Sequence record: PV841871.1
DNA length: 44,890 nucleotides
Origin: Escherichia phage Ivi
Strand: one strand, 5' to 3'
The notes beneath the pieces were generated by a model. That model was not told the origin of the DNA. It saw only the letters and a list, made by a program, of their open reading frames with translations, and did not search any database. Positions 20,150 through 20,566 of this stretch are shown here, piece after piece. Each line of letters begins with the position of its first letter. The first letter of the stretch is position 1. Position numbers and translations under genes: made by a program.

Positions 20150-20566
20150 ATGAAACTTTCTGATTTTTATTACGAAGCTGAGGCAGAAAAAGGCGCCCGT
20201 ATGCCGATACCACTGAAAGACGGCACCGATTCAGGGGAGTGGCTGAACGTTGTTTCACCGGAGGCAGACGTTGCTGTTAAAGCTATGAGGGCGTTTACAC
20301 TTGCGTACCGCGCGGCATTAGGTAAATTGAAACCGCTTCGCAATAAATGCGAGGAACTGAAAGATTTCTCGGAATACAACATCAAGATGGAAGACGCCGC
20401 AACGGACCTTAACCGCCAGTTAGCGCTTGAACTGGTTAACGGTTGGAGTCTCGACGATGAATTTAATAAAGAGAACCTGAATACTCTTTTCTCACAATAT
20501 AAACGACTCGCTGAACACGTTGTTGTTTTCCACAATGAACAGCTTCACCAATTGCAGGAAAAGTAG
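20150..20566 (+). CDS. tail assembly chaperone (gpG-like, by position)
   Basis: 138 aa acidic ORF directly upstream of the tape measure gene. Confidence 0.45.
   Translation: MKLSDFYYEAEAEKGARMPIPLKDGTDSGEWLNVVSPEADVAVKAMRAFTLAYRAALGKLKPLRNKCEELKDFSEYNIKMEDAATDLNRQLALELVNGWSLDDEFNKENLNTLFSQYKRLAEHVVVFHNEQLHQLQEK

Follow-up and report, generated by a model that had tools for sequence, protein, structure and literature searches.

The T segment of the tail assembly chaperone region of Escherichia phage Ivi is very probably expressed by a -1 shift at positions 20560 to 20563, in the last codons of the upstream chaperone gene, G. The predicted G-T fusion has 260 amino acids, of which the 122 residues after lysine 138 of G (K138) come from T. 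The window is the whole 44,890-nucleotide stretch of record PV841871.1 that we analyzed, and all positions refer to it. An earlier note on this DNA had proposed that a -1 programmed frameshift joins two tail assembly chaperone open reading frames (ORFs) just before the stop codon of the first. The joining is supported by the assignment of both halves to protein families, by a family (phrog_15027) that spans the fusion, and by joined coding sequences annotated in phages K1G and fFiEco03. The place is supported by the retention of A_AAG and the stop codon among relatives, by the lack of a start codon in most of them, and by a coding signature of the -1 frame that begins at the junction. We infer the fusion protein itself from these sequence comparisons. 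The features on which the argument draws are as follows.

16823 to 17995: tail tube gene, 390 amino acids, PF18906
20150 to 20566, plus strand: G, tail assembly chaperone gene, 138 amino acids, zero frame (ORF list, Pfam, PHROG)
20539 to 20566, plus strand: 28-nucleotide overlap in which the zero and -1 frames are both open and to which any slip is confined
20557 to 20563, plus strand: heptamer G_GAA_AAG, noncanonical, with the conserved core A_AAG at 20560 to 20563 and NNA_AAG at 20558 to 20563
20560 to 20931, plus strand: T segment in the -1 frame, AAA GTA GAC GCG TTG ... TGA (Pfam, PHROG, alignment A1)
20564 to 20566, plus strand: zero-frame stop codon TAG, directly 3' of the slip codon, a candidate "shifty stop"
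20572 to 20574, plus strand: TTG, an alternative start annotated in phage Schulenburg, with AGGA at 20556 to 20559, 12 nucleotides upstream
20924 to 23260, plus strand: tape measure gene, 778 amino acids (phrog_1538, E = 4e-196), its ATG overlapping the T stop codon (ATGGCTGA)

Overlapping frames, families and gene neighborhood

Direct reading placed the 3' end of G at ...TTG CAG GAA AAG TAG, with the TAG at 20564 to 20566. The upstream stop codon of the -1 frame is the TGA at 20536 to 20538, so that this frame is open from 20539 (ACA GCT TCA CCA ATT GCA GGA AAA GTA GAC GCG TTG...), and it runs to the TGA at 20929 to 20931, which overlaps the tape measure ATG at 20924 (ATGGCTGA). All coordinates that the earlier note had given for G (20150 to 20566) and for the -1 ORF (open from 20539 to the tape measure gene) were correct, and GGAAAAG at 20557 to 20563 does lie directly 5' of the G stop codon. 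Its statement that the -1 ORF has no ATG or ribosome-binding site (RBS) of its own was slightly too strong: the first ATG is indeed as far downstream as 20665, but there is a TTG at 20572 with AGGA at 20556 to 20559, 12 nucleotides upstream, and the Schulenburg record annotates this pair as start and RBS.

Both halves belong to recognized families. G matched Pfam PF08748 (Phage_TAC_4) at 34.6 bits versus a cutoff of 21.1, and it also matched phrog_313. The 130-codon -1 frame matched PF23812 (Phage_TAC_18) with an E value of 1.3e-18 and 67.3 bits versus a cutoff of 27, and T matched phrog_4557. A further family, phrog_15027 ("tail assembly chaperone," 259 positions), aligned with G at positions 1 to 138 and with the -1 frame at positions 136 to 259; because it spans both halves, this family was built from fused products, with the junction at K138. 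When used as a tblastn query, the predicted fusion matched 517 phage records. A search of 5.8 billion proteins with the fusion gave five distant or partial matches and no close relative, while the phage nucleotide collection held more than 500 records. The fusion found nothing below an E value of 0.1 among PDB sequences, and an NCBIfam search gave no match.

The gene order is tail tube, G, T (to 20931), and tape measure (from 20924), with genes on the minus strand at 18024 to 20109 intervening between the tube gene and G. This minus-strand block encodes a 376-amino-acid calcineurin-like phosphoesterase (phrog_704, "DNA repair exonuclease") and several small ORFs, as well as a 109-amino-acid protein, which the records of relatives label as a superinfection immunity protein like Imm of T4. 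Since the block before G lies on the opposite strand, a separate promoter for G, T, and the tape measure gene must be located at about 20000 to 20149. A scan of 19700 to 20700 for promoter and terminator consensus sequences found nothing above shuffled sequences.

Proposed slip site across relatives

We compared 91 related loci, made up of GenBank representatives and 80 IMG/VR contigs, in which T identity ranged down to 45%. NNA_AAG ends the zero frame in every one of them. A stop codon follows the AAG immediately in 90 of the 91, as TAG, TAA, or TGA, and in the sole exception the stop lies one codon further on. The codon before AAG always ends in A (GAA, GCA, AAA, TCA, or GGA), and the amino acid that it encodes varies (E, A, K, S). 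The overlap of the two frames ranges among relatives from 208 nucleotides down to 10 nucleotides, and only the final codons are always common to both frames. The 10-nucleotide overlap occurs in two loci, L074 and L081 (taa CGC AAA GTA), which reduces the possible slip points to the GCA and AAG codons.

The same position is constrained at the nucleotide level. The last G codon is AAG and the penultimate codon NNA in all 38 representatives. Val-2 of T is GTA in 36 of the 38, a synonymous constraint that preserves the zero-frame stop codon; Ala-4 is GCG (37 of 37), and Leu-5 is CTG or TTG (38 of 38). Elsewhere in this gene, invariant Ala, Leu, and Gly residues are encoded by four to six different codons. 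The GCG CTG/TTG pair (20569 to 20574 in the window) is synonymously frozen even in clades that have no detected partner for the helix described below, and this freeze could reflect an influence of spacing or context on slipping or termination.

The earlier note had called the heptamer noncanonical and the exact slip site uncertain, and the first point held: if tRNA-Glu moves from GAA to GGA, a mismatch is left at the middle position. The canonical X_XXY_YYZ arrangement is absent from this site in the window and occurs only in phage RP180 (G_GGA_AAG) and in two other relatives, L073 and L079 (A_AAA_AAG), at exactly the homologous position. The tetramer/hexamer arrangement, A_AAG behind a 5' codon that ends in A, is present in the window. 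The heptamer alone is not beyond chance, with 6 copies of GGAAAAG in the window versus 5.97 expected; the longer string GGAAAAGTAG occurs once versus 0.06 expected. The significance of the site lies in its position and conservation and not in the frequency of the heptamer.

We considered other signals near the junction. No X_XXY_YYZ site exists in the 28-nucleotide overlap, and the overlap of relatives can be as short as 10 nucleotides, so other slip sites in the overlap were rejected. An upstream Shine-Dalgarno-like stimulator was also rejected, as nothing is conserved 10 to 14 nucleotides upstream and clades that have TCGGAAAAG or ACGCAAAG lack the AGGA within the heptamer. More distantly, Stenotrophomonas phage A1432 (Bradleyvirinae) shows the same layout of G followed by a -1 T at 401 to 1086 of its locus, with 26% identity and a 148-nucleotide overlap. 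Its G ends ...GTT TCA AGC TAG with no A_AAG at the stop codon, and its slip site must therefore lie elsewhere.

Competing explanations for expression of T

Conservation of T starts at the slip site, with K1, V2, A4, and L5 invariant in alignment A1. Over T codons 6 to 35, the mean pairwise amino acid identity was 0.60 in the -1 frame versus 0.32 in each of the other frames, and the nucleotide identities at the three codon positions were 0.72, 0.74, and 0.41, a pattern that we read as the signature of a translated frame. Residues F22, D23, I25, G28, and H29 never change although their codons vary synonymously, and the 123-codon T frame is open in every related locus. From the upstream stop of the -1 frame to codon 9, no start codon (ATG, GTG, or TTG) is present in 34 of the 41 representatives, and 4 of the 41 have none up to codon 36. 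As most relatives have no start codon for T, independent initiation cannot be the general mechanism, and recoding from G is required.

The strongest alternative, which we nevertheless consider improbable, is that the second ORF is an independent gene starting at the TTG at 20572, with the AGGA at 20556 to 20559 as its RBS and possibly coupled to termination at the TAG at 20564 to 20566, with no frameshift at all. Records annotated in the style of Schulenburg, Snoke, Shashou, and Sciku place an RBS and a coding sequence start exactly there, many other records give two separate genes, and the Shashou paper sees no canonical slippery sequence (PMC6776780). However, the TTG is restricted to the window and Jersey-like clades, with CTG in 34 of 38 representatives, and most representatives lack any start codon up to codon 9, some of them even up to codon 36. 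The 12-nucleotide spacing between the AGGA and the TTG is long, and residues upstream of the TTG (K1, V2, and A4) are invariant. An independent start would also leave the invariance of A_AAG and the stop codon unexplained. Initiation at this TTG may make a small, trace contribution in this phage.

Two further explanations are both very unlikely. One is that only the C-terminal part of the second ORF is made, as an 87-amino-acid protein from the internal ATG at 20665 (codon 36). That ATG is nearly invariant, and many relatives, though not the window, have a GAGG upstream of it. The GAGG is about 14 nucleotides away where it occurs, however, and codons 6 to 35, which such a product would not contain, are under selection at the protein level (0.60 versus 0.32, with free third positions) and include the invariant residues F22 to H29 with their synonymous variation. 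A minor product may arise by internal initiation at this ATG.

The other is that the frame changes at the RNA level, with RNA polymerase slipping on the A run and deleting or inserting an A, so that a subpopulation of mRNA encodes the fusion. The protein product would be identical, and the site does consist of a run of A residues, which is longer in two relatives (CAAAAAAG). But productive transcriptional slippage normally needs about 7 to 9 or more identical bases, and the run in the window has only 4 A residues (20559 to 20562), with 3 in the relatives that have GCAAAG. Slippage of the polymerase would explain neither the adjacent stop codon nor the use of AAG over AAA in 38 of 38 representatives. 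Last, it is barely conceivable that T is a decaying or unexpressed remnant whose overlap with G is due to chance, as the 123-codon frame is open in every locus, the Pfam match has an E value of 1e-18, and strong purifying selection and conservation across the 517 phage records contradict it.

Downstream RNA, proposed mechanism and existing annotation

The earlier note had suggested a search for a downstream stimulatory structure. That search yielded a predicted helix (z = -4.3) with covariation in the group to which the window belongs, which was significant in only 16 of the 38 representatives. The region from 20564 to 20703 folds as one domain with a predicted energy of -58.6 kcal/mol (z = -4.3), which 0 of 200 shuffled sequences equaled. 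The predicted core pairing is between 20569 to 20576 and 20691 to 20698, within two arms.

20569 to 20578, plus strand: predicted 5' arm of the helix, GCGUUGCU followed by CC, starting 5 nucleotides after the AAG
20688 to 20698, plus strand: predicted 3' arm of the helix, GG, a bulged A, and AGCAACGC, in the most variable stretch of T

Phages JD02 and K1G fold alike with different arms (GCGUUGUUUC/GAAACAACGC and CGCGCUGUAC/GUGCAGCGCG, respectively). We aligned 37 distinct sequences, without gaps, from the group that has the 123-codon T segment, and RNAalifold independently predicted the helix from this alignment. In these 37 sequences, 90.5% of the helix cells pair, versus 16 to 57% for slid partners. 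Alignment positions 28 and 151 form C-G in 22 sequences and U-A in the other 15, so this pair is never broken, and the pairs 32-147 and 33-146 also change on both sides. In the 3' arm, C149, A150, C152, G153, and C154 are invariant within a variable region of T. The clade of VLCpiS11a has an equivalent 10-bp helix whose 3' arm lies 7 nucleotides away and in another codon register.

The double changes go back to a small number of independent events, and the helix with its compensatory changes is confined to some clades. When tested against dinucleotide shuffles, pairing of the arms was significant in only 16 of the 38 representatives and was absent from the Bas71, SETP3, and Cornellvirus-like clades, and over the full alignment only 64.5% of the helix cells pair. 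We tentatively propose the helix as a plausible clade-specific stimulator; it does not belong to the universal signal.

Other elements of the predicted domain were also seen. An inner helix pairs UGCCCGUUGG (20583 to 20592) with CCGACGGGCA (20636 to 20645), and it shows a switch from U-A to C-G in phage VSiP. It overlaps the FARW and ADGH protein motifs, so its conservation may be driven by the protein. A second inner element is the hairpin CCCGCC-ACAAAC-GGCGGG (20603 to 20620), which was rejected as the stimulator because it starts 39 nucleotides from the slip site and has not been preserved in K1G. An Rfam scan of 20300 to 21000 found no family, only chance snoRNA matches below threshold.

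Under the proposed frameshift, most ribosomes translating G would terminate at the TAG at 20564 to 20566 and release the 138-amino-acid chaperone. A minority would slip back by 1 nucleotide on (G_GA)A_AAG, as the single E. coli tRNA-Lys moves from AAG (20561 to 20563) to AAA (20560 to 20562). The slipped ribosomes would then read GUA GAC GCG UUG... to the TGA at 20929 to 20931, and the 260-amino-acid product would contain ...HQLQEK-VDALLQFARW.... Two routes would give the identical protein. In one, the tRNAs on GAA in the P site and on AAG in the A site slip in tandem; in the other, tRNA-Lys slips in the P site while the A site contains the stop codon. By the logic of lambda gpG/gpGT, the outcome would be that a chaperone with an additional domain is made at a fixed low ratio, from a locus directly preceding the tape measure gene. 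We infer the slipping machine (the ribosome and not RNA polymerase), as well as the efficiency and the stimulators of the shift.

In E. coli, no other tetramer comes close to A_AAG in its tendency to shift, since the one tRNA-Lys of this host pairs with AAA at least as well as with AAG (PMC4066793). Tetramers with no stimulator shift at near-background levels in E. coli, 0.147% versus 0.112%, and reach up to 5.6% with a pseudoknot (PMC4066793); a stimulator is therefore needed, and both that we identify here are candidates. The first is the stop codon, which would occupy the A site with AAG in the P site and be decoded slowly, as a "shifty stop"; the near-universal adjacency of the stop codon argues that slow termination may be part of the signal. 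The second is the helix of 20569 to 20576 with 20691 to 20698, the base of which would lie 5 nucleotides from the slip site, the usual spacing. This helix would rarely be unwound, because most ribosomes would stop before reaching it.

It is possible, although we regard the proposal as doubtful, that throughout the Guernseyvirinae the ratio of G to GT is set by an unusual and minimal signal, slippage of P-site tRNA-Lys on A_AAG with the stop codon in the A site. Frameshifting would then compete with release factor, and an RNA domain of about 130 nucleotides would reinforce the shift in several clades, including this one, and would persist because few ribosomes pass the stop codon. If true, a phage structural operon would harbor a -1 frameshift of the shifty-stop kind that is natural and conserved, and whose stimulator has been acquired, relocated, and lost among related phages.

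Frameshifting in tail chaperone genes is conserved in double-stranded DNA tailed phages, according to the studies that PMC5009743 cites on this point (Levin 1993; Xu, Hendrix, Duda 2004, 2013). As with lambda gpG/gpGT, two ORFs overlap immediately before the tape measure gene, and the second lies in the -1 frame. The proposed slip is likewise close to the 3' end of G, the predicted fusion consists of the whole G domain plus the T domain, and the slip codon AAG would re-pair to AAA. The heptamer of lambda itself, G_GGA_AAG, is present at this position in the close relative RP180. Unlike in lambda, the heptamer here is G_GAA_AAG and not X_XXY_YYZ, the slip codon is followed directly by a stop codon in 90 of 91 relatives, the G and T families are PF08748 and PF23812 and not those of lambda, and a 2.1-kb block of opposite-strand genes lies between the tail tube gene and G.

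NNA_AAG hexamers are used by IS1222 and present in Bacillus cdd (PMC5009743). The site resembles the A_AAG class (IS1222 G_CGA_AAG, Bacillus cdd A_CGA_AAG, and synthetic constructs; PMC5009743, PMC4066793) in that its only invariant element is A_AAG after a codon ending in A, and in its E. coli host with a single tRNA-Lys, which fits the rule that in bacteria it is cognate re-pairing from AAG to AAA that drives -1 shifts. In contrast to IS1222 and cdd, the 5' codon is GAA (GCA, AAA, TCA, or GGA in relatives) and not CGA, and the candidate stimulators are different. Heptamers that begin with G_GA or G_GU count as recognized intermediates and are used in nature (PMC5009743), as in T7 gene 10, insect flaviviruses, and mesoniviruses, and in these the first codon likewise re-pairs imperfectly. 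A distant 3' element is also required in T7 gene 10. The slip codons of these intermediates are UUU/UUC instead of AAG, and their hosts and genes are different.

As in E. coli dnaX (A_AAA_AAG plus a 3' stem-loop), AAG would slip, with a predicted structure about 5 to 6 nucleotides downstream, and the dnaX heptamer itself occurs here in L073 and L079. The predicted multibranched domain resembles the three-way-junction stimulator of IS911. Unlike in dnaX and IS911, there is no conserved upstream Shine-Dalgarno stimulator, and the closing helix spans about 115 nucleotides and is found in some clades only. On every feature that can be tested from sequence, the site qualifies as a member of the tail chaperone frameshift class, of the A_AAG tetramer/hexamer type with an abutting stop codon.

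The region from 20000 to 21100 is 99.6% identical to that of Escherichia phage Schulenburg (Kagunavirus, Guernseyvirinae) and matches 327 phage records, nearly all from Kagunavirus or Jerseyvirus (Guernseyvirinae). A -1 frameshift has already been proposed for this phage group and is inconsistently annotated. A joined coding sequence is annotated in the type phage K1G (ORF22A/22B) and in fFiEco03 ("frameshift product"), which is 98.3% identical to the window and has a joined coding sequence of 782 nucleotides, in agreement with the 260-amino-acid fusion. As the frameshift is annotated in near-identical genomes, it is not new, and knowledge of tail assembly is unchanged by it. Within the searchable literature, we found no experimental test of the fusion protein for this group of phages. 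In Schulenburg and its sister phages, the second ORF is annotated as a separate gene from the TTG with an RBS, and in further records it is begun at assorted downstream codons; of the several hundred records from Kagunavirus and Jerseyvirus, most present it as a separate hypothetical gene with an arbitrary start. The comparative data give one joining rule, a slip at A_AAG before the stop codon with the junction ...K-V....

The useful part may be this exact family-wide definition of the junction together with a natural series of motif and structure variants. At one homologous position the series runs from A_AAG through G_GAA_AAG to G_GGA_AAG or A_AAA_AAG, with or without a helix, and it could be used to measure the trade-off of motif, adjacent stop codon, and structure.

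Among the full-length tblastn matches listed, 55 of 57 consisted of two pieces in two frames. The other two matches, from Salmonella phage SS3e (NC_006940.2) and phage GE_vB_HIL (MG969408), have several frame changes within G. We rejected them as natural in-frame fusions, since the indels are scattered in G and the junction is identical, and the frame changes are probably sequencing or assembly errors. Because of the frame changes in its record, G of SS3e is annotated as a truncated 85-amino-acid ORF.
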